Assembly: GCA_051747585.1 (NCBI GenBank)
Contig: JBNJGH010000005.1
Location: 4,037-68,036, forward strand
DNA from: Candidatus Rifleibacteriota bacterium
GTDB lineage: Bacteria; Muiribacteriota; Ozemobacteria; Ozemobacterales; Ozemobacteraceae
DNA: 64,000 nucleotides
Direction: 5' to 3'
Below are positions 1,889 through 63,562 of the stretch, piece after piece. The translations under genes were made by a program, and so were the position numbers. Position 1 is the first letter of the stretch. Each line of letters begins with the position of its first letter. The notes under the pieces are model-generated. The model was not told the origin of the DNA and did not search any database. It was given only the letters and a program-made list of their open reading frames with translations.

Positions 1889-3045
1889 TTCACCAATACT
1901 ATTGAGTATTCTGAATCGCCTGATTCCTGATAAGGATCTTTTACCTGGCTTGTATCGCTTATATTAAACGCATATTGATGATAGCCCGGAGCAACTCCGG
2001 TAAAGGTTCTGGTGTATACTCCATCACCGGCAACCTCATCACCGTTTGTTCCGTCATCATACATCTGCTGCGGCTGCCAATCAGTAAAGTCTCCCACTAC
2101 AGCGGGATCTTCAACTTCAAGAAAGTCGGATTTTACCAGAACAAGCTTTACTTCGCCGCTTTTCTTCGAACTCATAACTGTGGTTGGAACGTCATAAACA
2201 GTTACGCTTGTTAAATCAACCGGAACGGTTTTTACATGCAGATTTTCACTTCTGAATACCAGATATTCTCTGCCATTGCCTTCCATCGGCATGTTATAGC
2301 CACCGTCACTGTCACAGAATATTGAGCGAGAGCCTTTTTTGGTTGCAAGTTTTACTTCTGAATAATTAATACCGGTTAGATCACTTGTTACCTGCCCACG
2401 GGCTACCTTAACGGTAGATTCGGGTATTATTATTTCTGAATCGCCGTTGCGGCTACCTTCTTCGTGTGGATCATCTTCATCTGAAATATCGTCTCCGCCG
2501 TAATCTACAGCTATCTGATAAAGCTGTGAGCCCGTTTTTAAATTGGTCAAACGAAGGCTGTAAATACCATCATTTGCAAGCTTATCTCCGTGAGTTCCAT
2601 CATCATACATTTGTTCTGAATCAGGATTCCATTCGGGATTGATCGATTTGACCGAAAACCCCTGAGCATCGGGGAAATCGATAATAGTTGCTATCCATTT
2701 CGCTTCACCAACTATTTTTTCATCCAGACTTATATCAGGAGCCTCGATAGACTCTTCTATTTCTGCATCAACCCAGGCATAGTCGACATCGAAGTCACGA
2801 CCCCGCGCTACAAGGAGAAAACGACCGGATTCTCTGAATTCAAAAGAATATTGGCCTTCTTCATTCACATAGGCTGATTTATCTTCGCCGGCAACCGTTA
2901 CCCTTATTCCGGTCGGAACTTTACCGGCAGGAACAACTATTTTTCCTGTAACTGTTGCAACAGGAATAACCAGCGCTTCTTGAATGCAGCCGGTAGTTGT
3001 TAGAGCTGTAAAAACGAGCAACAGTAGTGATATGAGTTTTTTCAT
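1885..3045 (-). CDS. Probable lipoprotein with tandem beta-sandwich (carbohydrate-binding-like) repeats
   Basis: The ORF track gives 1885..3078; the preferred start is the ATG at 3045 (MKKLISLLLLVFTALTTTGC, a lipobox-like signal) with AGGAA upstream. An internal repeat carries the motif W.P..QMYDDGT.GD..A.DG.YS twice (KSINPEWNPDSEQMYDDGTHGDKLANDGIYS and VGDFTDWQPQQMYDDGTNGDEVAGDGVYT), typical of CBM-like modules. Confidence 0.6.
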   Translation of the reverse strand: MKKLISLLLLVFTALTTTGCIQEALVIPVATVTGKIVVPAGKVPTGIRVTVAGEDKSAYVNEEGQYSFEFRESGRFLLVARGRDFDVDYAWVDAEIEESIEAPDISLDEKIVGEAKWIATIIDFPDAQGFSVKSINPEWNPDSEQMYDDGTHGDKLANDGIYSLRLTNLKTGSQLYQIAVDYGGDDISDEDDPHEEGSRNGDSEIIIPESTVKVARGQVTSDLTGINYSEVKLATKKGSRSIFCDSDGGYNMPMEGNGREYLVFRSENLHVKTVPVDLTSVTVYDVPTTVMSSKKSGEVKLVLVKSDFLEVEDPAVVGDFTDWQPQQMYDDGTNGDEVAGDGVYTRTFTGVAPGYHQYAFNISDTSQVKDPYQESGDSEYSIVLVK

Positions 3046-3055
3046 AATTTGGTTC

Positions 3056-15029: not shown

Positions 15030-15854
15030 GTGAGTGACAAGATTTTGACCAGAGAACTTTATAGAGGCGACATGCTCGATGTCGCCTCTTTGCTTAGACC
15101 CGAAAGTTTCAGGCTGATTTATCTGGATCCTCCTTTTTTGACCGGGCGTGCAAGGATAGGGAGCAATGAAGATTACTCTTATGACGATAAATGGAATAGT
15201 CTACTCGATGACTATCTGCCCTGGTTGCAAACACGCATAAAAGCCCTTAGACCTTTATTGCTAAGTAATGGCAGCTTAATTCTTCATCTGGATTTCAGAG
15301 CAGCCCATTATGCCAAAATTATGCTCGATGAAATCTTTGGACGGGAATGCTTTATAAATGAAATAATCTGGCATTACACCGGCGGAGGCAGGTCGAGAAA
15401 CCGGTTTTCCTGCAAACACGACACTCTACTATGGTATAGCAATGGTCAAAAGCCACTGTTTAATATCGATGCCGCCCGAATGCCATACAAAAAAACTTCG
15501 GGTTACGCAAAAAATGGAATAAAATCTGCAAGTGGTCGAATATACAAACCGCATCCGGATGGGACTCCAGTAGACGATGTCTGGGACATTCCGATTATCA
15601 ACCCAATGTCAAAAGAGCGGGTTGGTTATCCGACCCAAAAACCGGTAAAATTGCTTAATCGAATTATTGCAACTCTTTCAGCTGAGAATGAACTGATTGG
15701 CGATTTTTGCTGCGGCAGCGGAACAACTTTATTTTGTGCCGAAAAAACAAATCGGCGCTGGATTGGCGTTGATCAATCAAAAGCTGCTATTGAGTGCACT
15801 TTAAGTAGATTTACAGAAGTTATCAGAAAGAAAATCTCAATCCAGAATCTGTAG
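15030..15854 (+). CDS. DNA methyltransferase, N4/N6 beta-class (motif IV before motif I); no cognate restriction gene adjacent
   Basis: GTG start 4 nt after the glyQS stop. The motif LIYLDPPF (DPPF, motif IV) lies near the N-terminus and DFCCGSGTTLF (the FxGxG AdoMet motif I) near the C-terminus, which is the beta-class order, as in YhdJ or CcrM. Confidence 0.85.
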   Translation: MSDKILTRELYRGDMLDVASLLRPESFRLIYLDPPFLTGRARIGSNEDYSYDDKWNSLLDDYLPWLQTRIKALRPLLLSNGSLILHLDFRAAHYAKIMLDEIFGRECFINEIIWHYTGGGRSRNRFSCKHDTLLWYSNGQKPLFNIDAARMPYKKTSGYAKNGIKSASGRIYKPHPDGTPVDDVWDIPIINPMSKERVGYPTQKPVKLLNRIIATLSAENELIGDFCCGSGTTLFCAEKTNRRWIGVDQSKAAIECTLSRFTEVIRKKISIQNL

Positions 15855-35365: not shown

Positions 35366-36373
35366 TCAGGCTGGATCGAGCAAAACACTTAATTTCAATA
35401 CCTCACCTTCAACCCTTACCAGTTTTCTGGCAGACAAAAATCCTTCAGCCTCAATTTTAATATTGTGGTATCCACAATCAACTGGTTTAACCGCAACTAC
35501 ACCATCATTCGATTTTTTCTGCTTTTTACCATCAATATCGATCCAAAAGTTTTTAACCGCTTTATTATTATTTCGAGAAAACACACTCATGATAATTTGG
35601 GATGTTGCCGGTGTCAGTCTTATTGTCATACGATCTTTCTGCAATCTGTCACGTTTGAATCTAAGCGTTTTGTAACCCGGACATGAAACTAGAAAAGCAA
35701 ACTTTTTTGATTTGCTTGTTTTACGATTCACGCTTATAATCGCTTCACCATTGCTGTTAATAGAGTATGAGCTGCCATCAACAGCTATAAAACCGTGCTT
35801 AACAGGTTTTTTGCTCAGGGTATTCACAAATTTAATCTTAAATTTTCTGTCAAAATTATCGCTCAACCCAAGACGAATTTTGATTTTATTCAGCACTGAA
35901 CTATCGGCAAAATTTTCATAATGCTCTTCAGGGCTAAACAAAGCAAATGAGCTGCCTATATTTTTATAAAATTTAGATCTGTTCAAACCGGCAAGTTTGC
36001 GTAAAAGTCTTGTTATCTCATGATCCGGAGCATTACTTTCAAGGAATTTTAAAGTTTTTTTAAGATGCCAGAGTATTTCGTGGTTTCTTACAGCTCTTTC
36101 CGGTCTAAAGCTGGAATCTGGAAAACCACACACAATACCCGTTTCAAGACTGGCTGCAACAGATTTAGTCTGCAAAGAACTTAAATCAACAAAGTTTTCT
36201 TCGCCTGCCATATCTTTTGTATCGGGAAGAGCTTTAAGCACAATCTGGTTTAAAACCCTTGCTAATTGTAATCTTGTCACCTGTTTGTCATTATCGAAGC
36301 GAAAAGCGGTTAAAAATAAAGAAACCGGTAAAAGTATAATAAACCAATATTGCAATTTTGACTTAACTTTCAT
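35366..36373 (-). CDS. Secreted hypothetical protein (possible partial SLH-like N-terminal segment)
   Basis: 335 aa with a signal peptide. The N-terminal stretch FDNDKQVTRLQLARVLNQIV resembles the C-terminal half of an SLH motif. I could not assign a function. Confidence 0.5.
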   Translation of the reverse strand: MKVKSKLQYWFIILLPVSLFLTAFRFDNDKQVTRLQLARVLNQIVLKALPDTKDMAGEENFVDLSSLQTKSVAASLETGIVCGFPDSSFRPERAVRNHEILWHLKKTLKFLESNAPDHEITRLLRKLAGLNRSKFYKNIGSSFALFSPEEHYENFADSSVLNKIKIRLGLSDNFDRKFKIKFVNTLSKKPVKHGFIAVDGSSYSINSNGEAIISVNRKTSKSKKFAFLVSCPGYKTLRFKRDRLQKDRMTIRLTPATSQIIMSVFSRNNNKAVKNFWIDIDGKKQKKSNDGVVAVKPVDCGYHNIKIEAEGFLSARKLVRVEGEVLKLSVLLDPA

Positions 36374-37070
36374 CTTCCGCTCCTACCAGCCAATAATGAT
36401 TGTCACTTTTAAGCAATCTGGCGTTAATATCTGCAGCGATCTGTTTCAAGCCGTCGAGAGGGTTGGTAACCGACATATCAACAGCGATGGTTTCGGGCAG
36501 TTTTCCCGAAAAACTCAAACTTATCCCTGCTCTTTCTGCCAAATTTAAAATAAGAGGTAATACCGAAACCTCTTTGAATTTTAAAACTACCGGCGAATGT
36601 TTACCCCTCTCGGGGTTCATCAAAGACTCCGAATTAAAAACAGTTTTTCCTGAATGGTTAGAGTTCTTTTCTATTATCAGCTCGATAGCGTCATCTCCTT
36701 TTTTTATGCTTTTCAAAACACTTCCGTTTAAAAAAAGCTTCAACCCGCCGATTTTTCCACCTTCAGGATAAGAGAAAAAATAGCCCATGCTTATAAGGTC
36801 ATTGGCAAAAGCATTATTTAAAAGTTTTTTATCCAGACCGCTTCCTTTAAAATCAATTGTTAAACTTGCATCTACGGCATTAAAACTAACAACCTGGTTT
36901 AACGAATTATTTGCCCCGATAAAGACAGAACAACTGTTTTCCCGTTCATCGATACGACAGGATAAAAGCAGGTTATCTTCTTTAAATGCGGCCCTTGCCA
37001 GACCAAGACTGACAAGAAACAAAATAACAATTATCTGCCAACGATTAAATAAAGGGTTCTTCATAGTCAT
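36363..37070 (-). CDS. Secreted protein with C-terminal STN-like (secretin/TonB short N-terminal) domain
   Basis: 235 aa with a signal peptide. The C-terminal KFKEVSVLPLILNLAERAGISLSFSGKLPETIAVDMSVTNPLDGLKQIA resembles STN-domain consensus. The assignment is by eye only. Confidence 0.45.
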   Translation of the reverse strand: MTMKNPLFNRWQIIVILFLVSLGLARAAFKEDNLLLSCRIDERENSCSVFIGANNSLNQVVSFNAVDASLTIDFKGSGLDKKLLNNAFANDLISMGYFFSYPEGGKIGGLKLFLNGSVLKSIKKGDDAIELIIEKNSNHSGKTVFNSESLMNPERGKHSPVVLKFKEVSVLPLILNLAERAGISLSFSGKLPETIAVDMSVTNPLDGLKQIAADINARLLKSDNHYWLVGAEDES

Positions 37071-37668
37071 CCTTTAAAAACACCTGCTCCAAAATGCTGT
37101 ATAGATTCATACGGGTAATATTGGCAAAACGTCGGGAACTTATTTGTCTAAGTTTCTCTTCTCTTCCGATAATGACGGCAAGATTTTTCAATTTAGTGCT
37201 GACATCTTCTGCATTTACAATTTCAGCATCAAGCAACAGGTCTTTACTGAAGTTAAGCTTGTAAAATCTTATTATGGTAGTCAACGCATGATTAAATTCT
37301 TTTACGGTTATCGGTTCATAGGGCGCAAAAAAATTATTGCCACGATAAAGACAGCCATCCATTTCCAACAGCTTTGCCGCGTCATGATAAATCTGGTGAT
37401 CTACGGGAATATCAACAAAAAATGCCATATCATTTTTTGCATTTGTATTAAAAACTGAAACACAAAAAACAAGACTGAAAGATGTAAAAAAGAAAATAAA
37501 ACCGGCAACAAGAAGCTTGCGGCACTTAATTTTTAAATTTCGATTAAGCTTTATTTGAGCTGCAGAAAAAATTTTTGCAACAAATGAATCTACGAAAAAC
37601 AAAATTGCTTTTCGCTGCAATAAAATAAATTTCAAAAAGGATTTGCCTGCAATGCTCTTTTTTATCAT
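37045..37668 (-). CDS. Membrane-anchored SLH-domain protein
   Basis: A single TM (LLVAGFIFFFTSFSLVFCVSVF) is followed by an SLH-like motif FVDIPVDHQIYHDAAKLLEMDGCLYRGNNFFAPYEPITVKEFNHALTTIIRF. Confidence 0.5.
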   Translation of the reverse strand: MIKKSIAGKSFLKFILLQRKAILFFVDSFVAKIFSAAQIKLNRNLKIKCRKLLVAGFIFFFTSFSLVFCVSVFNTNAKNDMAFFVDIPVDHQIYHDAAKLLEMDGCLYRGNNFFAPYEPITVKEFNHALTTIIRFYKLNFSKDLLLDAEIVNAEDVSTKLKNLAVIIGREEKLRQISSRRFANITRMNLYSILEQVFLKDDYEEPFI

Positions 37669-51915: not shown

Positions 51916-51997
51916 GAAATCCTAAACTTTGTTTTTCATTATGCCGATATATTTACTAGAACGTAAAACTAAAAACGACAAAAAAGGAGGCCCGGAC

Positions 51998-52132
51998 ATG
52001 CTTTGCCCACAATGCAGCGCATCAATGGTCAGAAAATCTCACAACGGACGACAATCACCTTATTTCACCCTCAACTGCAATCACTGCAAATTTGTTATTT
52101 TCTATCGCGGACAATTCAATAACGAAGAATAA
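51998..52132 (+). CDS. Small (44 aa) C4 zinc-ribbon protein
   Basis: AAGGAGG lies 7 nt upstream of the ATG at 51998. The sequence MLCPQCSASMVRKSHNGRQSPYFTLNCNHCKF carries CxxC…CxxC. The ORF track's longer ORF from 51929 lacks an RBS. Confidence 0.5.
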   Translation: MLCPQCSASMVRKSHNGRQSPYFTLNCNHCKFVIFYRGQFNNEE

Positions 52133-52591
52133 TTTAACTTAAAGTCATAATAGAACAGAATAAGAGTTAAATCAACCTTAATAAGGCTCTATCGGTAGCT
52201 ATAAAAGTAATTTCCCCGGCTTTTAAACTTGATTATATGCTAGAAATGAGCAAACAGGGCCTTATAAAATGACTGCGCACCCACCCTCTATTCGTACTGG
52301 CTAATTTTTAAGGGAGCCTGAAAAAACAAAGCGGCAGCATTCGCCACCGTTCAAAGCCTGAAAATTCTGCTATCTTTTTCAATCATTCACGAATTATTAT
52401 CTGAGCATTTTCCAGCCGGATTCCCACCATATACGGCTACTAGTCCTACAAACCGGTTGGGTTCTCGTAGTTAAATTCTTACGAGCTGAAACGGCAAGGT
52501 TACCCTTAACTTGAATATGCTCTTCGTTTTCCAGATTTTTATTTCTACGATAGTTTAAATACGAGTTCGAAAACATCTCGTGCTTCAACAT

Positions 52592-52858
52592 TTATCTGCT
52601 CCTGACTCCGTTTCGATGCTGACCATTGCAGATACAATCGAGTTCAGTTTCAAGTTCACGCAATTTGCGGTCTATTACATTCAAGCGATCTATTTCTTCA
52701 CGGCATTTCTCTGAAATTTCAACTTCTACGGATTTTTCTTCTTTTCGCAAAGCCTCGATTGAATTCTGGATAAGCTTAACTTTCAGCCTCTCCTCATTAT
52801 CGAGCTGAACCTTAGTTGCTGGCTCTTTTGATTTAAATAGAGGAACTAAAACGCCCAT
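52592..52858 (-). CDS. Small coiled-coil protein (88 aa, hypothetical)
   Basis: GGAGG lies 6 nt upstream of the ATG at 52856-52858 on the minus strand. The protein is a heptad-rich charged helix (…LRKEEKSVEVEISEKCREEIDRLNVIDRKLRELETELD…). Confidence 0.45.
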   Translation of the reverse strand: MGVLVPLFKSKEPATKVQLDNEERLKVKLIQNSIEALRKEEKSVEVEISEKCREEIDRLNVIDRKLRELETELDCICNGQHRNGVRSR

Positions 52859-53193
52859 GTACAGCCTCCAAATAATTTATATATGCCGGATTTTTTTGTC
52901 CGCCATCACTTACTATCGGCATGCAGTAAACTTAAATTTAATCCTTGTTTGCCCCTGCTGTTTGTCGCACTGCCGGGATATTCATGGCTGAATACCTTCC
53001 TTTGCTCCAACAACACATCAAACAAAGCCTTTAAGCCTCAAAGCTAACAAAGAAGAGAATTAAATAATCGAAAAGCCTTTCCCGATCGTGATACCGAATT
53101 GCGATGACTGCTCGGGCAGCAATTCTCGGTCAATTATTATTTGCTATTTACAAAACAGTTCTGGTTTTATTTCTTTCTGTCAAATATAGAATT

Positions 53194-53357
53194 TAAACCA
53201 CTGAGGCCACCGAGGGCGCAGAGTTGATTTTTTAATCTTTTTCAGCCAGGATTTTGTCCTGTGGACAAATAGCCGGCGGTTTCATTGCCCGGCTTTTCCT
53301 TCTTCAGCAAGCCTTCAGAAAAACACGAGTGCTTTTCTGAAACGAGTTGATAGTCTC
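53194..53357 (+). repeat. Copy B of the conserved modular intergenic element (M1 53194-53248, variable spacer with two small hairpins, M2/M3 53304-53357)
   Basis: This copy has the same blocks as 13236-13545 in the same order and orientation. M2 and M3 are contiguous here. It ends ~105 nt upstream of the phoH2 ATG. Confidence 0.6.
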
Positions 53358-53463
53358 TCACCGAGAATTACTACTGCTCGGGTGTAAGTTTGACAGAAAG
53401 TTTAGCTCTATGCTAATTTTGGACTGATTTATATTAATTTTTTTTTAGAATAGGAAACTTTAG

Positions 53464-54771
53464 ATGAAAAAAACCTTCGTGGTTGATACTAACGTGATCC
53501 TGCACAGTCATCAGTCCCTTTTTTCTTTTAAAGACAACGATGTTGTTATTCCCCTTGGAGTTATTGAAGAATTAGATCGATTCAAAGGCTTCAACGATGA
53601 ACGAGGCCGTGAAGCACGACAAGCATCCAGAGAGCTGGATGAGCTCAGACACAAGGGGAACCTCAGCAAAGGGGTAAAACTGGAATCGGGCGGATCCATT
53701 CAAGTAATTCTTGACAGTGATATTGAACTCCCTTACGGGTTAGACGGCAAAAAGGTCGACAATCGAATTATTGCCTGCGCGCTTCACCTTAAAAACAGCG
53801 GGCAAAATGCCTATCTGATCAGCAAAGACATTAATTGTCGCATTAAAGCCGATGCCCTGGGCATTCCAACCGAAGACTTCGAAACAAACAAGATCGATAT
53901 TGATGAGCTTTACTCGGGCTGGAGAGAGCTGGTAATGCCGGTTAACAAAATTGAAAGATTTCTACGCGAAGAATCGCTCGAGTATGAAGAAAACGATCTT
54001 TTCAGAAATGAGTTTCTTCTTCTGAAGGCTGCAGAAAATGAAAACAAAACTGCATTGGCAAAATATGATGGCGAAGCAAAATTGTTACGCCCACTGTTTC
54101 ATGTAAACGCGAAGCCATGGGGTGTAGAGCCTCTCAATCTTCAACAGAAATTTGCAATTGAACTGCTGCTATGCAATGAAATAGAGTTGGTAACTCTTGT
54201 AGGGAGAGCCGGAACCGGTAAAACTCTTCTTGCTTTGGCCAGCGGATTACAAAAGACTATTGACGAGCACCTGTTTAGAAAACTGCTGGTCAGTCGTCCA
54301 ATTATGCCACTTGGCAAAGATATAGGCTTTCTTCCCGGTTCAAAAGACGAGAAACTCAGCCACTGGATGCAACCAATATTTGATAATCTTGAATTCGTAA
54401 TGGATCGACTTTACAAAAATTCCGACGATGTAGACAAAAAAATTCGCTTTCTCATTGAATCCCAGAAAGTTCAAATCGAAGCGATAACCTATATCAGAGG
54501 TAGAAGCATTCCAAAACAGTTCCTTATTGTCGATGAAGCACAGAACCTTACCCCTCATGAAGTAAAAACTATTATCAGCCGAGCCGGCGAAGGAACCAAA
54601 GTTGTATTAACCGGAGACCCTTATCAAATAGACAACCCATACCTTGACAGCTCTTCTAACGGGCTGAATTTTGTTATCGAAAAATTCAAAGACCATAAGC
54701 TTTTCGGTCACATAATACTGCACAAATCAGAGCGATCATCTCTCTCGGCTCTTGCTTCAGAATTGCTCTGA
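53464..54771 (+). CDS. PhoH2: N-terminal PIN-domain nuclease fused to PhoH-like P-loop ATPase
   Basis: The PIN acidic core is present (VVDTNVILHSHQ…DNRIIACALHL). The PhoH Walker A is LVGRAGTGKTLLALA and the Walker B is FLIVDEAQN. Length is 435 aa. Confidence 0.9.
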   Translation: MKKTFVVDTNVILHSHQSLFSFKDNDVVIPLGVIEELDRFKGFNDERGREARQASRELDELRHKGNLSKGVKLESGGSIQVILDSDIELPYGLDGKKVDNRIIACALHLKNSGQNAYLISKDINCRIKADALGIPTEDFETNKIDIDELYSGWRELVMPVNKIERFLREESLEYEENDLFRNEFLLLKAAENENKTALAKYDGEAKLLRPLFHVNAKPWGVEPLNLQQKFAIELLLCNEIELVTLVGRAGTGKTLLALASGLQKTIDEHLFRKLLVSRPIMPLGKDIGFLPGSKDEKLSHWMQPIFDNLEFVMDRLYKNSDDVDKKIRFLIESQKVQIEAITYIRGRSIPKQFLIVDEAQNLTPHEVKTIISRAGEGTKVVLTGDPYQIDNPYLDSSSNGLNFVIEKFKDHKLFGHIILHKSERSSLSALASELL

Positions 54772-54796
54772 CAAATAAAAAAGAGGATATTAAGTT

Positions 54797-55705
54797 ATGT
54801 TTGTTTGCAGAAAAAAGGCAATAACTTTTCTTGAGATAATTGTTGCGGTGGCAATTCTATCTATTGCGATGATTCCTCTGTTTGCTCTTATGAGTAAAGA
54901 AACAGTTGAGACCGACAAGAACGCTTCAGAGGCATTTGCCATAAACAAGGCCTCTGAAGTTCTTAATTCAGTTCTCGACAATATTCCTTTTGCCGCTCTC
55001 AGACAGGGGAATCCTGGATACATAAAGGTAGACGACTTAAAAGAGGGATTTGATACCGGTAAATACAGCGATACCTGGGCTAAAAATTTAAGCAAAATGC
55101 TTTTTGGCAACGAAGGTAAAGAATCTGCCGGTTATCCCTGTCGCGGCATAATAAAAGATGCCCGGGGCATTTACTATCTGGTTCATATGCGAGTTGAAGA
55201 CGTGACCTCCAAGATCAAACCGCCCCGGCCTGATAAGGTTAGAGTTGGCCCGGCATTTCCCGATGACAGTCCCACTTCTTTTTCTGAGCGCAACGAAATG
55301 ACTTTTTCGTTTTTAAAAAATCCCGCTTTAATTTCAGACGGCAGCTGGTATGTTGATTATGCTGAAAATCCAAAAGATCCGGACAAACCTCTGACCGAAC
55401 TGGACCTGGGTTCAGGGCGCGGAGTGGCAGAGCCCTCAAACAACATATACCTGGATCAGGGCATGGAGGGGTATCCCCCGGACGCTCCCCGTTACCTGGA
55501 TCCGACAGCAGTGCGATATACCCAGAAGATGATTAGTTCCAAAGTTCCCTATGACACAAGCGAACAGTTTGCCTGGTGCACTATGAAAAAAGTTCTGGTA
55601 CAAGTGCAATGGAACCTCGATCAGAAATTCTTTAAAACCCCGGGAACCGATGAGGGACGAGTGCAAAGAGTACATCTTATGACTCTGAAAGGGGATATAG
55701 ACTGA
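54797..55705 (+). CDS. Prepilin-type N-terminal domain protein (pseudopilin / minor pilin-like), Ala at −1
   Basis: The N-terminus is MFVCRKKA|ITFLEIIVAVAILSIAMIPL. This gives a class III signal with Glu at +5 and a hydrophobic helix, but the residue preceding the predicted cleavage site is Ala, not Gly. Confidence 0.65.
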   Translation: MFVCRKKAITFLEIIVAVAILSIAMIPLFALMSKETVETDKNASEAFAINKASEVLNSVLDNIPFAALRQGNPGYIKVDDLKEGFDTGKYSDTWAKNLSKMLFGNEGKESAGYPCRGIIKDARGIYYLVHMRVEDVTSKIKPPRPDKVRVGPAFPDDSPTSFSERNEMTFSFLKNPALISDGSWYVDYAENPKDPDKPLTELDLGSGRGVAEPSNNIYLDQGMEGYPPDAPRYLDPTAVRYTQKMISSKVPYDTSEQFAWCTMKKVLVQVQWNLDQKFFKTPGTDEGRVQRVHLMTLKGDID

Positions 55706-56565
55706 TGAAAGATCTTAAAGCAACCAACAAAAAACGTGGCGTAGCCATTGTAATAGCTATTTTTTTCTCATTTTGCATGCTGATCCTTTTTGTCACCATG
55801 ATTTTTCAACGCACTGAGACTGCCGGTCACAATAAACTAACCGTAGAAGATCGCCAGGCGTTCTTTGCATCAAGAGCTGCAATACAGCATTTCCTCGTAA
55901 AAGCCAAACTTTTTCCAACCGAGCTTTATGATGCAGTTGAATTTTCTCTTGGCAAAAACCCGCTATGTAATTTCACTGAATTTTCAGGAACCTATCAGGG
56001 CAGCAATGCTTTTGAACCGATGAGTTCAAAGCCTGAAGTTTATGTGAGAGTTCACCCAACCCGTGAGCTGGATATAAACAAAAAACCCAAATATTTTTAT
56101 TTTCCGTTACCGAACACCAATGCCTTTATAAGGCTTGGAAGTTTTCACAATCCGGATTACCGTTTTCTTGCCAAAGGCCTTGCAACGAATGATCTTAAAA
56201 GCAGATATATCAAGCCCAAACGACCAGCCAAAAATTTGAAGCCCCATAAATACTTGAAATACTACATTAGAGACTGTACTAACATGATTGTAGATAACAC
56301 CAGAATGCAGCCTCCACTCGAAATAGTAATAGATAATGACATAAAAAAGATAACTGATTGGGACGTGGCTACCAATGAAGGATATCCCTACACCCTACAA
56401 TACAGGGTTCAAAACGTTGAAATTCAATCGATCAAGGGCTTGAGAAAATATGGCGAAGAAGCGATTGAAATTGCAGTAGAAGGACAAACTAAAAACTTCC
56501 AGGGCAAATTAGCCAGTCAGATTCAAAAGAAAACCGAAAAAATCACCCGAAGAGGGGCATTATGA
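55705..56565 (+). CDS. Membrane-anchored hypothetical protein in pilin cluster (GspK/PilX-like candidate, no Glu+5)
   Basis: The N-terminus MKDLKATNKKRGVAIVIAIFFSFCMLILFVTMIF has a single N-terminal TM. It is translationally coupled to its neighbours, with an ATGA overlap at its 3' end. Confidence 0.5.
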   Translation: MKDLKATNKKRGVAIVIAIFFSFCMLILFVTMIFQRTETAGHNKLTVEDRQAFFASRAAIQHFLVKAKLFPTELYDAVEFSLGKNPLCNFTEFSGTYQGSNAFEPMSSKPEVYVRVHPTRELDINKKPKYFYFPLPNTNAFIRLGSFHNPDYRFLAKGLATNDLKSRYIKPKRPAKNLKPHKYLKYYIRDCTNMIVDNTRMQPPLEIVIDNDIKKITDWDVATNEGYPYTLQYRVQNVEIQSIKGLRKYGEEAIEIAVEGQTKNFQGKLASQIQKKTEKITRRGAL

Positions 56566-57293
56566 TGTCTAAAAAAGCTTTCACCATGGTCGAGCTAATG
56601 GTGGCCTGCGTTATTCTCGCGCTTTTTATGGTTGGAGTTTATCAACTTTTTATCGGTGGAACAAAATCAGCCGGAAGAGCCCGATGGATAAGCGGAACCG
56701 TCGATCAGATGAGAAATGCCCTGACTCTATTGAATCGCGAAATTAAAAGTGCAACCTACCCATCGACTTTATTTAGCGACACTTTTTTTGATCCCTGCGA
56801 CAATCCCGACAATTCAGTAGCAGAAGAATTTTATCTGAAAATTCTAAAAACAGGCGAGCCAATTACACCACCAACTACCGGAGAACTAAAAATTATGGAA
56901 TGGTCGGTTTGCGAACCCGAAAAACCACCCCAGCCGGGAAAAATTGTTAAACATGTGCTTGTCTTGAAAACCAGCAAAACTTCGGCAAAGGAAACTCTCG
57001 GAAGACTGCATCTTACATCTAATGCATTCAAATATACCACTGATAAAACAGCAGAATATGCCAAATCGGGGAATTTATCGCTTACTCCAATCGAAGATGA
57101 AAAAAGTTCGAGAACCTTGGTTCACGATGTTCAATTTGTAGAATTTTCAGTTGCAGGCAATATTCCTCCAGATAAACCAGTAGACTTTTTTCCGATTTCG
57201 GTTAAAATACGTACTCTGTATCCTAAAGACAATAAAGTGTTCAAAGAAAACTCAATTATGGCAACTCCACAAGTAGGTATTGATACATTTTAA
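56562..57293 (+). CDS. Prepilin-type N-terminal cleavage/methylation domain protein, Ala at −1
   Basis: MMSKKA|FTMVELMVACVILALFMVGVY gives a textbook FTxxE pilin N-terminus with E+5, but Ala precedes the predicted cleavage site. Confidence 0.7.
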   Translation: MMSKKAFTMVELMVACVILALFMVGVYQLFIGGTKSAGRARWISGTVDQMRNALTLLNREIKSATYPSTLFSDTFFDPCDNPDNSVAEEFYLKILKTGEPITPPTTGELKIMEWSVCEPEKPPQPGKIVKHVLVLKTSKTSAKETLGRLHLTSNAFKYTTDKTAEYAKSGNLSLTPIEDEKSSRTLVHDVQFVEFSVAGNIPPDKPVDFFPISVKIRTLYPKDNKVFKENSIMATPQVGIDTF

Positions 57294-57316
57294 ATTTAAC
57301 TGTATAGTGTTCTGTC

Positions 57317-58075
57317 ATGGCAAAAAAATGGCATCAACTAGAAAAATTAGATCATAAGGCTCTAAAAAAGCTTCAAGCTGAACGAGATCGTGCAGCTAAA
57401 CAGGCAAGAGAAGCTCAAGAGCGCAAACGCCGCATGATTATTGGCGGCGCTATTTTGTTTGGCATAATTTTCATACTCATATTCGTATCAATTATGAAAA
57501 ACAGAGCTGCCGAAGTCGCTCGCAAAGAAGAGCGCGAAAAAATGCTTTTCTCAAAAGTTGTCAAGCACTCCGGAAACCTGCAGTGGAGAAATCTAGGTAT
57601 CTGGAACAGATTTAAAGAAAATTTCGAATTCGACTCCCGGCATTCTTTCAGAACCGAAGAGGACTCAAGCGTAACTGTCAAGCTTCAGCTCGACAACCAG
57701 TTAAAGCTTGCAGCAAATTCTGAAATGACAGTTTTTCCTCCCGAGCTTGCAAAAAAAGAGAACAAGGTGGTAAAAGAAGTTGTAGAGCTCAAAAGAGGCG
57801 AAGTAACCGCCGCCATATCTCTTGACGGCCGAGGAGTTTTACATATAGAGGTCAGTGGTATTTCCGTTAAAGGTTCCTCGGGCCTGTTTAAAGTTATTTA
57901 TGAACGTAGTCAAGACAAAGGTGAAGTTGTTGTCAAAAACGGCCTGGTAGAAGTTTCCAAAATAAGAGGCAGCAGCAAGCCAACAAAAGTAGCGGGTTTT
58001 TATAAAGTTACTTTCAGTGGCAACGAAATCAGCGATCCCACCCAGGCGAGCGTTATACAATATGACTGGCGCTGA
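57317..58075 (+). CDS. Membrane protein with FecR-like C-terminal domain
   Basis: A charged N-terminus and one TM (MIIGGAILFGIIFILIFVSI) are followed by a C-terminal beta-rich segment (EVVELKRGEVTAAISLDGRGVLHIEVSGISVKGSSGLFKVIY…GEVVVKNGLVEV) resembling FecR/DUF4974 folds. Confidence 0.5.
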   Translation: MAKKWHQLEKLDHKALKKLQAERDRAAKQAREAQERKRRMIIGGAILFGIIFILIFVSIMKNRAAEVARKEEREKMLFSKVVKHSGNLQWRNLGIWNRFKENFEFDSRHSFRTEEDSSVTVKLQLDNQLKLAANSEMTVFPPELAKKENKVVKEVVELKRGEVTAAISLDGRGVLHIEVSGISVKGSSGLFKVIYERSQDKGEVVVKNGLVEVSKIRGSSKPTKVAGFYKVTFSGNEISDPTQASVIQYDWR

Positions 58076-58089
58076 AAAATTTCAAATTT

Positions 58090-60945
58090 ATGATACGCGT
58101 AATCAAAGCCAGGGTTCACAACCTTAAAGATCTTAGTGTTAATATACCCAGGAATTCTCTAACAGTTATTACCGGTGTTTCAGGTTCCGGGAAATCTTCT
58201 CTTGCATTTGACACCATTCATGCAGAAGGCCAGAGACGATACATGGAATCCTTGTCGTCTTACGCGCGCCAGTTTCTTCAACAGATGGAAAAACCTGATG
58301 TTGAAAGCATAGAAGGTCTTTCGCCAACCATAGCAATTCAGCAAAAATCAACCTCAAGAAATCCGAGATCAACTGTAGGCACCACAACCGAGCTTTACGA
58401 TTATTTCAGATTACTGTTCGCGGCCATAGGAAAACCCCACTGCCCGGAATGCGGTAGCGGAGTAGAAAGCTCAAGCCCGTCGAAAATTGTCGATAATCTG
58501 CTTAAATATCCTCTTAAAACCAGATTAACCCTACTGGCTCCTGTTATAAGAGGTAGAAAAGGCGAATATATAAAAGTATTTGAAGAGTTGCGTAAAGAGG
58601 GCCTTTCAAGAGTCAGGGTCGATGGCGATATGTGGTCTCTCGATGAAGAACTGCCCGAACTCGATCGCAATCGCAAACACAACATAGAGGTTGCAGTAGA
58701 TCGCATAAAACTTAAAAACAAAGACAACGATTCTTTGCGGGCCAGACTGAATGAAGGTGTAGAACTCTGTTTTAAACTTGCTGACGGCCAACTTCTTATT
58801 ATTATCGATTCGCCGGAACAAGACAAGCCACTGGAAAAAATATATAGTGAAAATCTTCATTGTCCGGTTTGCGATATTTCACTTCCCGAAATAAAACCAA
58901 GGCTTTTTTCTTTCAATGCTCCTTACGGATCATGCCCATCTTGCTCAGGGCTGGGAATGCAGCTTGTCGCCGAAGCCGAACTTGTGGTTCCGGACCCGGA
59001 TTTATCAATAGCTCAGGGAGCTATTGCTTCAGAGAACTTTGCAGAAGCCAGCTTTTCTCGACAATGGATGGAAGGACTGGCACAGAACTATGACTTCAGA
59101 CTCGACACACCATTTAAAAAACTGCCCGAGAAAATAAAAAACATAATCTTTTACGGCACAGGCAGCAAAAAACTCAACATTAAATATCAGGGCAGAACCA
59201 TGAAAGGCTCAATAAACAGGCCCTTTGAAGGGTTATTGCCAACAATAGAGCGTCGATTTAGAGAAACCCGTTCAGAAGGTGCCAAGCGTTTTTATGAAAA
59301 ATTTATGCGCACCCATACCTGCCCTGATTGCAACGGGCAAAGACTTGGGCCCATCGCTCTTTCTGTAAGAATCAAGGGCGAAAATATTCATCAGCTGACC
59401 CAGCATCCGGTAGGCGAGCTGGTAGAATTCTTTGACAATCTAAAACTTAATGAAAAAGAAGCTTTTATCTGTAAAAAAATTCTCGAACAAATAAAAAACA
59501 GATTAAAATTTCTCAACGACGTAGGCCTCGACTACCTTAACCTTTCGCGCGCAGCTCACACCTTGTCGGGCGGTGAGGCTCAACGCATAAGGCTTGCAAC
59601 TCAAATTGGCTCTGCTTTGGTCGGTATAACCTATGTGCTGGACGAACCAAGCATTGGCCTGCACTCAAGAGACAACAAACGCCTCATTGCCACCCTTAAA
59701 CGCCTCAGAGACATTGGCAATACCGTGTTGGTCGTAGAACATGACCGCGAAATAATGCGGGAAGCCGACAATATAATAGATCTTGGCCCCGGTGCCGGCA
59801 TAAAAGGCGGCGAACTCGTAACTGAGGGTCATTTCAACGAAGTAATTAAAGACAAAAAAAGTATGACCGGCCATTTTCTAGCAGGACGTGAGTTTATTTC
59901 CATTCCCGAAAAAAGAAGAAAAGGCAACGGCAGAAGTGCTCTCCTTAAAGGCGCTTCACACAACAACCTGAAAGATATAGAAGTCAATATACCTCTTGGC
60001 AAACTGGTTGTGATAACAGGAGTATCCGGTTCAGGCAAATCAAGCTTGGTTACAGATACGCTCTACCCGTTACTTAACAATCTAATTAACAGATCACACC
60101 TTGAAGTGGGTCGCCACAAAAAACTTCATGGTCTGGATTTTATCGATAAAGTCGTAAACATTGACCAGAAACCCATAGGCAGAACACCGAGGTCAAATCC
60201 GGCAACTTACACCGGAATATTCACTCCTGTAAGGGAACTTTTTTCCCAGACAGTTGAAGCAAAAACCAGGGGCTATGCTCCCGGCAGATTCAGTTTTAAT
60301 GTTAAGGGTGGGCGCTGCAGCGTTTGTGACGGCTCTGGTCAGATTCAAATCGAGATGCACTTTCTGCCCGATGTATATGTAACCTGCGAACAATGTAAAG
60401 GTAGAAGATTTAATGATGAAACTCTTAAAGTTAAATTCAAGGGTCTCAATATAGCCGAAGTTCTTGATATGAATGTTACCCAGGCACTTGAGTTTTTTGA
60501 ACCTTTTCTTAAAATTCGACGCCGACTGCAAACCCTGCAAGATGTCGGTCTTGGCTATATAACCCTTGGGCAGGCAAGCACTACGCTTTCGGGCGGAGAA
60601 GCTCAACGAATCAAACTCGCAACTGAATTGTCAAAAATTGCAACAGGTTCAACTTTTTATCTTCTCGACGAGCCTACTACCGGCCTGCATTTTCAAGATA
60701 TTCGCTGCCTTCTTCAGGTCCTTGACAGGTTGGTAGACAAGGGAAATACAGTAGTTGTCGTCGAACATAACCTTGATGTTATCAAGTGTGCCGACCATAT
60801 TATCGATCTCGGGCCCGAGGGGGGCGAAAAGGGAGGCTACATTGTAGCTGAAGGCCCCCCCGAGGGAATTATCAAGAATCAGCATTCAATTACCGGTAAA
60901 TTTCTGGCGGAAGAATTTGCCCGAAGTTACAAGCTTAAAAAGTAA
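58090..60945 (+). CDS. uvrA: Excinuclease ABC subunit A
   Basis: The N-terminus is MIRVIKARVHNLKDLSVNIPRNSLTVITGVSGSGKSSLAFDTI. There are two ABC modules with zinc fingers (CPECG…, CPDCNGQR, CSVCDGSG…C..C). Length is 951 aa. Confidence 0.97.
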   Translation: MIRVIKARVHNLKDLSVNIPRNSLTVITGVSGSGKSSLAFDTIHAEGQRRYMESLSSYARQFLQQMEKPDVESIEGLSPTIAIQQKSTSRNPRSTVGTTTELYDYFRLLFAAIGKPHCPECGSGVESSSPSKIVDNLLKYPLKTRLTLLAPVIRGRKGEYIKVFEELRKEGLSRVRVDGDMWSLDEELPELDRNRKHNIEVAVDRIKLKNKDNDSLRARLNEGVELCFKLADGQLLIIIDSPEQDKPLEKIYSENLHCPVCDISLPEIKPRLFSFNAPYGSCPSCSGLGMQLVAEAELVVPDPDLSIAQGAIASENFAEASFSRQWMEGLAQNYDFRLDTPFKKLPEKIKNIIFYGTGSKKLNIKYQGRTMKGSINRPFEGLLPTIERRFRETRSEGAKRFYEKFMRTHTCPDCNGQRLGPIALSVRIKGENIHQLTQHPVGELVEFFDNLKLNEKEAFICKKILEQIKNRLKFLNDVGLDYLNLSRAAHTLSGGEAQRIRLATQIGSALVGITYVLDEPSIGLHSRDNKRLIATLKRLRDIGNTVLVVEHDREIMREADNIIDLGPGAGIKGGELVTEGHFNEVIKDKKSMTGHFLAGREFISIPEKRRKGNGRSALLKGASHNNLKDIEVNIPLGKLVVITGVSGSGKSSLVTDTLYPLLNNLINRSHLEVGRHKKLHGLDFIDKVVNIDQKPIGRTPRSNPATYTGIFTPVRELFSQTVEAKTRGYAPGRFSFNVKGGRCSVCDGSGQIQIEMHFLPDVYVTCEQCKGRRFNDETLKVKFKGLNIAEVLDMNVTQALEFFEPFLKIRRRLQTLQDVGLGYITLGQASTTLSGGEAQRIKLATELSKIATGSTFYLLDEPTTGLHFQDIRCLLQVLDRLVDKGNTVVVVEHNLDVIKCADHIIDLGPEGGEKGGYIVAEGPPEGIIKNQHSITGKFLAEEFARSYKLKK

Positions 60946-60972
60946 AGATAGCAGAAGCTATTTGGGAAAATA

Positions 60973-62337
60973 ATGGCAAAAAACAAAAATATTTTTATAT
61001 GTCAAAGCTGCGGCCAAACTTATAGAAAGTGGCAAGGCCAGTGCTCAGGTTGCCAGGAATGGAACACCTTAACCGAAGAAGTGGCCCAACCGACCAAAAG
61101 AAAAACACCATCTCAAAGTTCCATGTTTAACGCAAGCCTTTCAATGATACAGACTCTCGATGAAGTTGAAATTGAAACCACTTCGAGATGGCACAGCGGC
61201 ATCGACATTTTTGATGAACTAATTGGCGGAGGCCTGGTACCTGGTGGAATTACTCTTATTGGCGGTGAACCCGGAGTCGGTAAATCAACCTTTATGCTTC
61301 AACTTGCCTCGCGACTCGGAGTACAAATTAATCCGCTTGCATACATTTCCGGCGAAGAATCTGCAACTCAAATCAAGTTAAGAGCGCAACGTCTTAATAT
61401 AGGCAATGGTAAAGACATTGTTCTGATGTCTGAACAAAATATCGATGCCGCCCTGCAGGGAATGATTTCTTATTTGCCACGAATGCTGGTGGTAGATTCC
61501 ATTCAAACGGTTTTTACTCCGCAACTCGATGCCACTCCCGGCTCTATCACCCAGATACGAGAATGCGCAGCTATTTTGACAAAATTTGGCAAAGACAGGG
61601 GTATGCCAATATTTATAATAGGGCATGTAACCAAAGAAGGGGCAATAGCCGGCCCTAAGGTTCTTGAACACATCGTTGATACTGTTTTGTATTTTGAAGG
61701 CGAGCTAAGCTCTAATTTCAGAATTTTAAGAGTGTTTAAAAATAGATTCGGGGCAACGGGCGAAGTTGCGGTTTTTCAAATGACGGATAAAGGCCTGAGT
61801 CCGGTTTTAAACCCGTCTGATCTATTTATAAGTCATAATCGCAACGAAGCCTCAGGTGTGGTGGTTGTTCCACTCTTACAGGGAAGCAGATGCATTCTTG
61901 CCGAACTACAAACCCTGGTAACCCAGTCTTTTCTTGCAATGCCAAGAAGGGTAGTATCAGGCCTGGACTCTAACAAACTTAATCTTGTAATAGCCGTTTT
62001 AGAAAAACATGGCGGCTTGAAGTTCTATAATCGTGATGTATTCGCCAATGTTGCCGGCGGACTCAAACTAACAGAACCCGGCGGAGATCTCGGACTGGCA
62101 ATTGCATTGGCTGCAAGCGCCGATGATCGAATTGTTCCGCCGGATTTGCTTTGTGCCGGAGAACTGACCCTGGCGGGAGAAGTCCGTCCGGTAGCCCAGC
62201 TGGAACGAAGAATCGCCGAAGGTCGTCGCTTCGGTTTCAAAAAATTTATTATTTCCGCCGCTTCCGAGATACCGGCCAAAAACGGTATAATCAAAGTTAA
62301 CTCTTTGAGGGAAGCTCTTTCGACCATTTTTAATTAA
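60973..62337 (+). CDS. radA: DNA repair protein RadA/Sms
   Basis: An N-terminal C4 zinc finger (CQSCGQTYRKWQGQCSGCQEWNT) is followed by a RecA-like Walker A (GGEPGVGKST), the KNRFG motif and a Lon-protease-like C-terminal domain. Confidence 0.95.
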   Translation: MAKNKNIFICQSCGQTYRKWQGQCSGCQEWNTLTEEVAQPTKRKTPSQSSMFNASLSMIQTLDEVEIETTSRWHSGIDIFDELIGGGLVPGGITLIGGEPGVGKSTFMLQLASRLGVQINPLAYISGEESATQIKLRAQRLNIGNGKDIVLMSEQNIDAALQGMISYLPRMLVVDSIQTVFTPQLDATPGSITQIRECAAILTKFGKDRGMPIFIIGHVTKEGAIAGPKVLEHIVDTVLYFEGELSSNFRILRVFKNRFGATGEVAVFQMTDKGLSPVLNPSDLFISHNRNEASGVVVVPLLQGSRCILAELQTLVTQSFLAMPRRVVSGLDSNKLNLVIAVLEKHGGLKFYNRDVFANVAGGLKLTEPGGDLGLAIALAASADDRIVPPDLLCAGELTLAGEVRPVAQLERRIAEGRRFGFKKFIISAASEIPAKNGIIKVNSLREALSTIFN

Positions 62338-62394
62338 TTTGCAATATTATCAAATAAGTTTTATATTATTTTGTGTCACCCTAGGAGGTTTGCT

Positions 62395-62670
62395 TTGAAG
62401 AAAGCCGATACAGTAACTTTTAAAGTTGATCCAAATTTGCTTGAAATTTTACAGGCAATGCCAAACAGGTCTGAGTTTATAAGAAGCGCAATTCTTAATG
62501 CACTTGACCACGTTTGTCCGCTTTGCAGCGGTTCAGGAGTATTAACCCCATCTCAAAAAGATTGTTGGGATAAATTCGCCAAAAATCATGAAATTAAAAA
62601 ATGCGCCGAAAATGATCAGATACAAATCTTCTGCAATGTCGAGCCAGAGCGACAAAATGGAGAAAAGTAA
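62395..62670 (+). CDS. Small ribbon-helix-helix (CopG/Arc-like) DNA-binding protein with C-terminal Cys/His-rich putative metal-sensing tail
   Basis: TTG start at 62395 with AGGAGG 6 nt upstream. The N-terminus KADTVTFKVDPNLLEILQAMPNRSEFIRSAILNAL gives an RHH beta-strand + helix pattern. A HVCPLCSGSG…DCWDKF…HEIKKC…FC tail follows. It sits immediately upstream of, and overlapping, znuA. Confidence 0.55.
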   Translation: MKKADTVTFKVDPNLLEILQAMPNRSEFIRSAILNALDHVCPLCSGSGVLTPSQKDCWDKFAKNHEIKKCAENDQIQIFCNVEPERQNGEK

Positions 62671-63562
62671 AAATAAAATTATTTTTACCCTGCTTCTGTC
62701 TTTTACTCTCTGCTTTGTAAGTTCCAGCTTATTCGCCCAACCTCAGACTGACGTTTTTGTCAGTATTTTGCCGCAGCAATTTTTTGTAGAAAAAATTGCT
62801 CAAAAGCTGGTAAACGTTCGTGTAATGGTGAGACCCGGCATGTCACCTGCCACATACGAGCCTTTGCCACAGCAAATGGCAGAACTGTCTCGGTCGAAAA
62901 TGTTTTTTGCAATTGGAGTGGCTTTCGAAAACTCTTTATTAAAAAAAATGCAGGCGACCTTTCCTGAAGTAAAAATATGCCATACCGACGCAGGTATCAA
63001 CAAAAGAATCATGCAGAACTCATCGGGGCATAATCATGATCATAATGGGAGCTGCGATCACCAACATGGCAGCAAAGACCCTCATATCTGGCTGGACCCC
63101 TTGCTGGTTAAGCAACAGGCGACCAATATCGCATCCGGATTGATTGAAATTTTTCCCGACAATAAAGAAACTCTTCTACAGAATCTTAAAAGCTTCCATA
63201 ACGAATTAGATAATTTACACCTCGAATTAAAAGAACAACTAAAACCTTTCACAGGCAAAGTAATGCTCGTTTTTCACCCGGCTTTCGGCTACTTTTCCGA
63301 CAGGTATGGCCTGAAACAACAAGCGATTGAAATCGAAGGCAAAGAGCCAAGTCCTCGACAGATGGCAAAACTTATTCGCCAGTGCCGCAAATTCAAAGTA
63401 AAAACACTTTTCGTTCAAAAACAGTTTGCTTCTAAAGCTGCACACGCAGTCGCAAATTCTATAGACGGCAAGGTTGTCTCTATCGATCCATTAAGACCTG
63501 ATTATTTTGCCGGTCTCAAACAAATTGCAGATTCTATTATTGAAGGTCTGCAGAATGAATGA
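62657..63562 (+). CDS. znuA: Metal (Zn/Mn) ABC transporter periplasmic substrate-binding protein, ZnuA/TroA family
   Basis: It has a signal peptide (IIFTLLLSFTLCFVSSSLFA), a cluster-9 SBP fold and the His/Asp-rich loop HNHDHNGSCDHQHGSKDPHIW typical of ZnuA. Alternative in-frame upstream starts exist, down to 62588. Confidence 0.85.
   Translation: MEKSKNKIIFTLLLSFTLCFVSSSLFAQPQTDVFVSILPQQFFVEKIAQKLVNVRVMVRPGMSPATYEPLPQQMAELSRSKMFFAIGVAFENSLLKKMQATFPEVKICHTDAGINKRIMQNSSGHNHDHNGSCDHQHGSKDPHIWLDPLLVKQQATNIASGLIEIFPDNKETLLQNLKSFHNELDNLHLELKEQLKPFTGKVMLVFHPAFGYFSDRYGLKQQAIEIEGKEPSPRQMAKLIRQCRKFKVKTLFVQKQFASKAAHAVANSIDGKVVSIDPLRPDYFAGLKQIADSIIEGLQNE

Follow-up and report, generated by a model that had tools for sequence, protein, structure and literature searches.

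In a 64,000-nt stretch of Candidatus Rifleibacteriota DNA (hereafter the window; all coordinates are positions within it), we found a block of six genes, phoH2-P2-P3-P4-P5-uvrA, whose order is preserved in Riflebacteria while its surroundings are not, and which is very probably an operon. The outer genes encode PhoH2 and the excinuclease UvrA, and the central four, here designated P2 to P5, encode three pilin-like proteins and a membrane protein with a FecR domain. We lean, with moderate confidence, towards the view that this is a unit specific to Riflebacteria (order Ozemobacterales), in which a minor-pilin-like cassette shares a promoter with phoH2 and uvrA, and in which the linkage is one of expression rather than of a common molecular machine.

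Context look-ups, combined with a scan of species-representative genomes, gave a sample of 39 loci. Gene order was mapped by tblastn and reconstruction of open reading frames (ORFs), and the counts below are limited to loci long enough to show the block. In every such locus, i.e. approximately 30 Riflebacteria loci, the six genes were collinear and on one strand. A first-pass annotation, made from the letters of the window alone, had proposed related genomes as a check on this gene order, and from phoH2 to uvrA the order was intact in all of these loci. Identity to the window proteins ranged from 80 to 91% for PhoH2, from 63 to 82% for UvrA and from 41 to 77% for P2-P5, with P4 falling to 41% among loci with intact order. 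In none of the 27 loci whose upstream sequence reached 5 kb or more, closest relatives included, did any of the window's five upstream neighbor genes lie upstream of phoH2. Since these neighbors are not conserved in any locus, the conservation of the block lies far above background synteny, which marks the block as a selected unit. P4 of the window is 100% identical to a protein of a Candidatus Rifleibacteriota metagenome-assembled genome, and among about 80 P4 homologs, the taxon name, where given, was Riflebacteria, bar a few seemingly mislabeled bins. Riflebacteria-type loci with 57-77% P4 identity were seen in bins named Methylomirabilis, Avigastranaerophilus, Erysipelotrichia or Clostridiales (L007, L026, L028, L037, L038 and protein P0003), suggesting mis-binned or mislabeled contigs. 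The breadth of the conservation is to be read with the caveat that all Riflebacteria genomes belong to one order and family in the GTDB version of the FESNov paper (PMC10849945).

A sigma-70-type promoter precedes the block (Table 1). Alignment of the sequences upstream of phoH2 gave the consensus TTGACA, a 17-18 nt spacer ending in TGn, and TAAnTT, located 67-79 nt before the phoH2 ATG in 32 out of 33 loci, while the remaining one (L012) has a near-variant. This pattern occurs once in the window, both strands counted. Besides the promoter, neither the region 5' of phoH2 nor the enlarged gaps between P5 and uvrA showed any conserved operator (e.g. an SOS box). The seven ORFs from phoH2 to radA were confirmed on the plus strand where they had been placed before, and the junctions between them are, in order, 25, -1 (TGATG), -4 (ATGA), 23, 14 and 27 nt; the earlier list of gaps was thus correct except for P2/P3, where the reported 0 is a 1-nt TGATG overlap. 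Across the loci, P2 and P3 overlap by 1 or 4 nt in all cases, the P3/P4 junction is mostly between -8 and +8 nt, and the P4/P5 spacing is 12-26 nt. The gap between P5 and uvrA is 5-18 nt in most loci, and consists of 86-476 nt of AT-rich spacer in the gut/rumen clade. The reported absence of terminators also stands, as a terminator scan gave no intergenic site in the block (terminator-like sites numbered 12, against 13.6 expected from shuffles, and the two plus-strand matches fall within coding sequence). Spacing alone is weak evidence of a functional unit, because tight gaps are the norm in this genome: of the other co-directional neighbor pairs in the window, 70% are at most 35 nt apart (median 16 nt), including plainly unrelated pairs, e.g. 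lptG and argS.

Shine-Dalgarno (SD) sequences are present before P2, P3 and P4, and absent before P5 and uvrA, where the short stop-to-start distances would fit reinitiation on a shared mRNA. Judging from these sequence signals, the six genes are very probably co-transcribed from the conserved promoter. The single operon from phoH2 to radA that had been put forward is therefore only partly retained: promoter, junctions and conserved order make one transcription unit very probable, but radA lies outside the conserved core. It is the immediate 3' neighbor of uvrA in a single clade, that with P4 identity of at least 63%, lies 1.2-2.7 kb from uvrA in L032-L034, and is not on the flank in L002, L003 and L025-L031. 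In the window, the co-directional run extends even beyond radA, to a small ribbon-helix-helix (RHH) ORF and then znuA. Upstream of P5 there is a candidate internal promoter or non-SD initiation element (Table 1), and a TATAGT/TATAA-like element in the P4-P5 spacer is retained in several clades. The spacer (AACTGTATAGTGTT, 57280-57316) is nearly base-identical between clades that share only about 64% identity in P4.

Table 1. The phoH2-uvrA block, radA and predicted promoter elements, with positions in the 64,000-nt window. A slash in a signal marks the predicted prepilin cleavage site.
Feature	Start	End	Strand	Description
sigma-70-type promoter	53390	53419	+	TTGACA, 18-nt spacer ending TGC (extended -10), TAATTT; 74 nt upstream of phoH2 ATG
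phoH2	53464	54771	+	PhoH2, 435 aa; N-terminal PIN nuclease domain and PhoH P-loop ATPase/helicase domain
P2	54797	55705	+	Prepilin-type, 302 aa; signal RKKA/ITFLE; GspI/PilV-like N-terminus and orphan globular domain
P3	55705	56565	+	PilX/GspK-style pilin-like, 286 aa; N-terminus KKRG/VAIVI, without Glu5
P4	56562	57293	+	Prepilin-type, 243 aa; signal KKA/FTMVE; GspJ/PilW-like N-terminus
candidate internal promoter or non-SD initiation element	57280	57308	+	TTGATA-17-TATAGT, 10/12 consensus match; ends 8 nt before P5 ATG
P5	57317	58075	+	Bitopic, 252 aa; cytoplasmic N-terminal helix, transmembrane segment at about 40-60, periplasmic FecR-type beta domain
uvrA	58090	60945	+	Excinuclease ABC subunit A, 951 aa; NF001503
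radA/sms	60973	62337	+	454 aa; TIGR00416; clade-specific neighbor outside the conserved core

Class-III (prepilin) signals consist of a short basic leader, Gly (rarely Ala) at position -1, about 20 hydrophobic residues and Glu at +5, where Glu5 is characteristic of subunits that pack into type IV filaments. Three prepilin-type proteins had been claimed for the block, and for P2 and P4 the prepilin N-termini are genuine. P4 matched both N_methyl (29.2 bits, cut-off 21.2) and IV_pilin_GFxxxE (TIGR02532; 20.4 bits, cut-off 16.3), with a weak match to gspJ, and is labeled "PilW family protein" by NCBI; its signal reads [KR]-[AG]/FTL[VIL]E across the loci, and all 40 homologs compared have the Glu at +5 (E11). 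P2 scored just under the cut-offs of N_methyl (19.3 bits against 21.2) and TIGR02532, and gave weak N-terminal matches to gspI, ComGE and PilV. Its N-terminal motif is kept in all loci, with the signal R-[RK]-A/[VI]TF[LI]E, and Glu5, C115 and C261 are invariant in 17 orthologs. Conserved Cys pairs in both P2 and P4 are consistent with a location outside the cytoplasm. P3, on the other hand, is PilX/GspK-like: it has no Pfam or NCBIfam match, and together with all its orthologs it displays R-[RKS]-G/[VIM]A[IL][VI][IV], with a hydrophobic residue instead of Glu at +5. A pilin-like N-terminus without Glu5 is the trait of PilX and GspK (PMC7541494), and NCBI gives the name PilX N-terminal domain protein to a distant P3 relative (P0225). 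In AlphaFold2 (AF2) models, both P3 (predicted local distance difference test, pLDDT, 77.8; helix 11-82, then a beta domain) and P4 (pLDDT 85.6; helix 9-62 and beta sheets) show the architecture of the pilin superfamily, i.e. a long N-terminal helix on a beta head. Profile alignment with hhalign related P2 and P4 in the N-terminal helix only, and P3 to neither.

The description of P5 as a FecR-like membrane protein holds across its family, as PF04773 (FecR) was matched with 24.6 bits (cut-off 24) in the window protein and also in 16 out of 19 orthologs (best E 5.5e-7). The 23 N-terminal cytoplasmic residues (MAKQWHQLEKLDHKALKKLQxER) are nearly invariant, with the motif MxKxWHQLExLDHxxLKKLQ kept in the family, as is the C-terminal FecR-type domain (GE.VVKNGLVEV...GFYK...QASVIQY.W), while the transmembrane and juxtamembrane segments vary. 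A search of the N-terminal peptide against PDB sequences found nothing, and an exact-sequence look-up of P5 gave no record. P5 is similar to FecR-type anti-sigma regulators in being bitopic with a periplasmic PF04773 domain, but on the cytoplasmic side it has only one helix, of about 40 residues, and no recognized anti-sigma domain. No gene for a sigma-70 family or extracytoplasmic function (ECF) sigma factor is in its neighborhood, nor does one for a TonB-dependent receptor adjoin it.

The cassette is modular and, to judge from its sequence relatives, present in several copies per genome. P3 paralogs about 46% identical to P3 were found in the same genomes. In two loci (L040:9076-13058 and L041:172-4200), from genomes that also hold the phoH2-linked cassette, a P2'/P3' pair with 41% and 46% identity to P2 and P3, respectively, and the prepilin motif SA/FTLVE lies directly upstream of a gene for a polytopic membrane protein of 722-734 aa with a spermidine-synthase domain. 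An exhaustive profile search of 1.84 billion representative proteins yielded 174 relatives, most of which share only the approximately 90-residue N-terminal module (RG-x-A-TM … QAxFxARGAxQHxLLK…LPTELYDA…GKNPxFDF); none of the 49 relatives scanned had a Pfam family. Three distant relatives (L042-L044) sit in triads of P2-like, P3-like and P4-like genes with overlapping ends. One of these, in the Riflebacteria metagenome-assembled genome GCA_042576865.1 (L043:8859-13815), includes P2-, P3-, P4- and P5-like genes (381, 316, 267 and 253 aa) with two TadE-family (PF07811) genes after them, and has a TrkA/TrkH-linked context in common with L042. The TadE genes hint at a connection with Tad-type filaments, and at the existence of type IV filament genes in the phylum. 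Neither phoH2 nor uvrA occurs in any of the paralogous contexts examined (L040-L044).

The enzymes at the two ends of the block are ordinary and slowly evolving housekeeping proteins. The PIN-PhoH call was confirmed by Pfam, with PIN_4 (1e-32) and PhoH (7e-46) both above cut-off, and the Walker A motif (GxAGTGKT), the DEAQ box and the conserved N-terminal acidic residues are invariant in our alignment (A6). Both UvrA (NF001503, 1424.9 bits against a cut-off of 1147) and RadA (TIGR00416, 527 bits against 403) score above their NCBIfam equivalog thresholds, in agreement with their earlier identification. The NCBIfam PhoH2 model, whose name, "RNA 5'-3' helicase PhoH2", designates an RNA enzyme, gave 281 bits, under its equivalog cut-off of 680. 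Two-domain architecture, Walker A/B motifs and N-terminal acidic residues are shared with mycobacterial and other bacterial PhoH2 proteins; what sets the Riflebacteria protein apart is the lower score and a place in a lineage-specific operon alongside envelope proteins and uvrA, where PhoH2 has not been reported before. The protein is still 57-60% identical in Endomicrobia, and in an Endomicrobiaceae genome, taken as an outgroup, phoH2 precedes PHP and DUF2779 genes and is accompanied by neither cassette nor uvrA. An alignment-based scan of 80 viral PhoH2 loci (655 kb) found no prepilin-type ORF within 4 kb, and the idea that PhoH2 and pilins are generally adjacent was therefore rejected; a viral scan with a single sequence found nothing either, and the literature searched on PhoH2 with pilins included no paper linking them. 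Two phage-like contigs from one sample (ERZ21869602; 37.5% GC, with HNH and methylase genes besides numerous small genes lacking annotation) also encode PhoH2, at 72% and 66% identity to the Riflebacteria protein (L045:10001-11308 and L046:10001-12073, respectively). In L046, a canonical GspG-like pseudopilin of 191 aa (MRKG/FTLMEIMVV) follows 106 nt after PhoH2, an isolated case in view of the 80 viral loci without a prepilin-type ORF.

All ORFs of the window of at least 110 aa, and several smaller ones, were also scanned with Pfam. No pilus ATPase, platform protein, secretin, prepilin peptidase or type II secretion system (T2SS) machinery was found in the 64 kb, extending to the whole window what the first-pass annotation had said of ATPase, platform protein and secretin in the block. 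The window also lacks further prepilin-type ORFs and cassette paralogs, as well as comEA, comEC and dprA. Minor-pilin clusters are commonly separate from machinery genes, with several sets per genome, e.g. three in M. xanthus (PMC7541494), and a missing assembly ATPase at the locus therefore says little. The literature searched on Riflebacteria pili or secretion offered nothing relevant, and the FESNov paper makes no mention of phoH, uvrA or pilin for Riflebacteria (PMC10849945).

Several features are shared with the minor pseudopilin tip complex GspI-GspJ-GspK of T2SS and the T4aP minor pilins PilV-PilW-PilX, as known from E. coli, P. aeruginosa and M. xanthus, namely three co-encoded pilin-like proteins, out of which two have a class-III signal with Glu5 while one large subunit is without Glu5, weak N-terminal hidden Markov model (HMM) matches to gspI (P2) and gspJ (P4), the PilX_N name on a distant P3 relative, several sets per genome encoded away from machinery genes, and the long N-terminal helix with beta head in the P3 and P4 models. 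Unlike those sets, the Riflebacteria cassette has no detectable sequence or fold similarity past the N-terminal helix, usually has Ala at -1 and a P2 (302 aa) far larger than GspI, and includes a bitopic FecR-domain protein instead of a GspH/FimU-type fourth pilin or PilY1. It is also set between phoH2 and uvrA, and is known here from the cassette genes alone. The PilA1-3/ComZ system of Thermus thermophilus is comparable in that a GspK-like non-canonical tip subunit is encoded beside GspI-like and other minor pilins. Its ComZ-PilA2 tip complex binds DNA (PMC6561018), the only well-documented precedent for a DNA-handling minor-pilin complex. ComZ, however, combines a 380-residue beta-solenoid with a GspK-like pilin fold, neither of which was recovered for P3 by Foldseek; the Thermus competence pilin locus is unlinked to phoH2 or uvrA, and no DNA-uptake genes are near the Riflebacteria cassette. 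With the Gram-positive ComG operon (comGA-GG) the block shares several prepilin-type proteins in one operon. ComG operons encode the ATPase ComGA, the platform protein ComGB and the major pilin ComGC, none of which is in the Riflebacteria block, the radA link is not conserved, and the Riflebacteria host is a diderm, as it encodes LptF/G.

The favored view can be put in molecular terms as follows. The central four genes would represent one copy of a lineage-specific envelope cassette, composed of a GspI/PilV-like, a GspK/PilX-like and a GspJ/PilW-like protein together with a FecR-domain protein. By analogy with GspI-J-K and PilV-W-X, P2, P3 and P4 most likely come together through a bundle of N-terminal helices as a small complex for priming or for the tip. 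This complex would belong to a type IV filament, with the genes for the major subunit, prepilin peptidase and motor located elsewhere, and with P5 as a putative membrane-anchored periplasmic accessory. PhoH2 and UvrA would share a transcript with the cassette, probably with translational coupling, but presumably no molecular machine. A number of observations weigh against this. Position -1 of the signals is mostly Ala, with Gly in some clades, instead of the canonical Gly. Structure prediction, suggested earlier as a check, returned helix-plus-beta models for P3 and P4 as said above, but Foldseek against PDB retrieved no solved pilin or pseudopilin for either (best E 0.066 for P3 and 0.13 for P4), nor any homology of their globular domains to the solved GspJ, GspK, PilV/W/X or ComZ folds; the heads thus match no solved pilin, and the term pseudopilin is therefore valid for the N-terminal module only. 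The fragment match of the P3 model to RAD52 (52 columns, template modeling (TM) score 0.14, E 0.066) was dismissed as noise. Profile searches against PDB sequences gave nothing for P2, P3 and P5, and only the N-terminal helix for P4. Furthermore, no major pilin, prepilin peptidase, PilB/GspE-type ATPase or platform protein is encoded in the window or within 10 kb of any cassette copy, nor a secretin in the window, the invariant cytoplasmic peptide of P5 has no identified partner, and phoH2 and uvrA are strictly kept at the cassette ends amid full turnover of the flanks, which goes beyond a neutral model and leaves room for a functional tie.

Some of these points would be accommodated if P2, P3 and P4 were uncleaved, N-terminally anchored inner-membrane proteins and not filament subunits, forming with P5 a periplasmic sensor or structural module peculiar to Riflebacteria, in which the prepilin-like N-terminus is an inherited anchor. 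Ala at -1, and even Ser or Leu in paralogs, the failure to match solved pilin folds, and the lack of assembly genes near any of the six cassette contexts (the window and L040-L044) all agree with this, as do the company of a FecR-domain protein and, for the paralogous pair, of a polytopic spermidine-synthase-like membrane protein, in the phylum where novel gene families are densest per genome (PMC10849945). Against it speak the invariant Glu5 in P2 and P4, a K-like member that lacks Glu5 exactly like tip subunits (PMC7541494), the helix-plus-beta architecture in the P3 and P4 models, and the two TadE-family pseudopilin genes adjoining one paralogous cassette, and we regard this alternative as possible but unlikely. 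Still less probable, in our judgment, is that gene order was merely inherited, without common transcription, and that internal promoters drive the distal cassette genes and uvrA separately. The element ending 8 nt before the P5 ATG may be an internal promoter that yields a near-leaderless P5-uvrA transcript, and the TATA-like element kept in several clades, the missing SD before P5 and uvrA, the 86-476 nt spacer before uvrA in the gut/rumen clade, and the origin of the sampled genomes from a single GTDB order and family are all compatible with such an arrangement. Yet the six genes never part even though both flanks are fully turned over, the 5-18 nt stop-to-start distances before uvrA without SD fit reinitiation on a shared mRNA, and the region has no more consensus promoter-like matches than chance would give (22, against 20.9 expected).

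The first-pass annotation had instead seen in the cassette a pseudopilus for the uptake or processing of DNA, which would act together with PhoH2, UvrA and RadA on incoming or damaged nucleic acid, after the example of ComG. This now looks improbable. RadA, on which the proposal rests, is outside the conserved core, its adjacency being limited to one clade; comEA, comEC, dprA and a pilus motor are lacking within 64 kb; the paralogous cassettes do without phoH2 and uvrA; PhoH2 has no pilin or uvrA neighbor in the Endomicrobiaceae genome and no prepilin ORF within 4 kb in the viral loci; and uvrA itself stands 86-476 nt apart from the cassette in one clade. In addition, the ComG analogy fails because the organism is a diderm, the literature search gave no link between PhoH2 and pilins, and PhoH2 is characterized, by its NCBIfam name, as an RNA and not a DNA enzyme. 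What speaks for uptake is the strict phoH2-cassette-uvrA linkage between variable flanks, the resemblance of the I-like/K-like/J-like make-up to minor-pilin tip complexes, including the DNA-binding ComZ-PilA2 of Thermus (PMC6561018), the invariant N-terminal helix of P5, which could contact a cytoplasmic partner, and the GspG-like pseudopilin after PhoH2 in L046. Most improbable of the arrangements considered is a single trans-envelope apparatus, in which a small periplasmic P2-P3-P4 pseudopilus would be coupled through P5 to PhoH2 and/or UvrA, with the invariant cytoplasmic helix of P5 as the docking site. If true, nucleic acid from the extracellular space or periplasm, or else an envelope signal, would reach a helicase/nuclease and an ATPase for damage recognition in the cytoplasm by direct transfer, in a pilin-linked surveillance or uptake system for nucleic acid of an undescribed kind. 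More likely, unrelated housekeeping and envelope genes have become fixed in one transcription unit.

Among the surroundings of the block, the 1.5 kb upstream of phoH2 (51916-53463) is gene-poor, with small ORFs only: one for a Zn-ribbon-like protein of 67 aa on the plus strand, and two of 88 aa (coiled-coil) and 64 aa on the minus strand. A terminator-like hairpin lies on the minus strand of this region (52349-52332). On the 3' side of radA, the RHH ORF (62371-62670; 99 aa, CopG-like with a weak RHH_1 match and a CxxC motif) overlaps the annotated start of znuA (62588-63562) by 83 nt, and is kept at 70-85% identity wherever radA and znuA adjoin. Its product probably regulates znuABC in response to metal, and the true znuA start is probably downstream of the annotated one. 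Further away, SLH and glucodextranase-C (SLH-like) proteins are encoded at 833-5359. Three consecutive overlapping genes on the minus strand (35366-37668; 335, 235 and 207 aa) have no family assignment, apart from a weak SLH match in the first. Taken together, the two regions suggest that the envelope of this diderm has an S-layer or is SLH-anchored. Lastly, an N6/N4 DNA methyltransferase gene (15030-15854) directly follows a class II aminoacyl-tRNA synthetase gene, with no restriction enzyme recognized next to it.

The architecture of this conserved operon appears to be undescribed, although cassette members already carry PilW/PilX-like labels at NCBI and there is nothing unusual in the enzymes. 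As a variation on minor pilins, the cassette is new and restricted to this lineage. The locus places four orphan families of the uncultivated Riflebacteria in a recognizable class, i.e. type-IV-pilin-like envelope proteins with a FecR-domain partner. Together with its promoter, this rare and strictly conserved operon is a possible lineage marker and an entry point for expression studies. A mechanistic linkage of PhoH2 and UvrA to the cassette, if true, would constitute a new tie between type IV filament biology and the surveillance of RNA and DNA.

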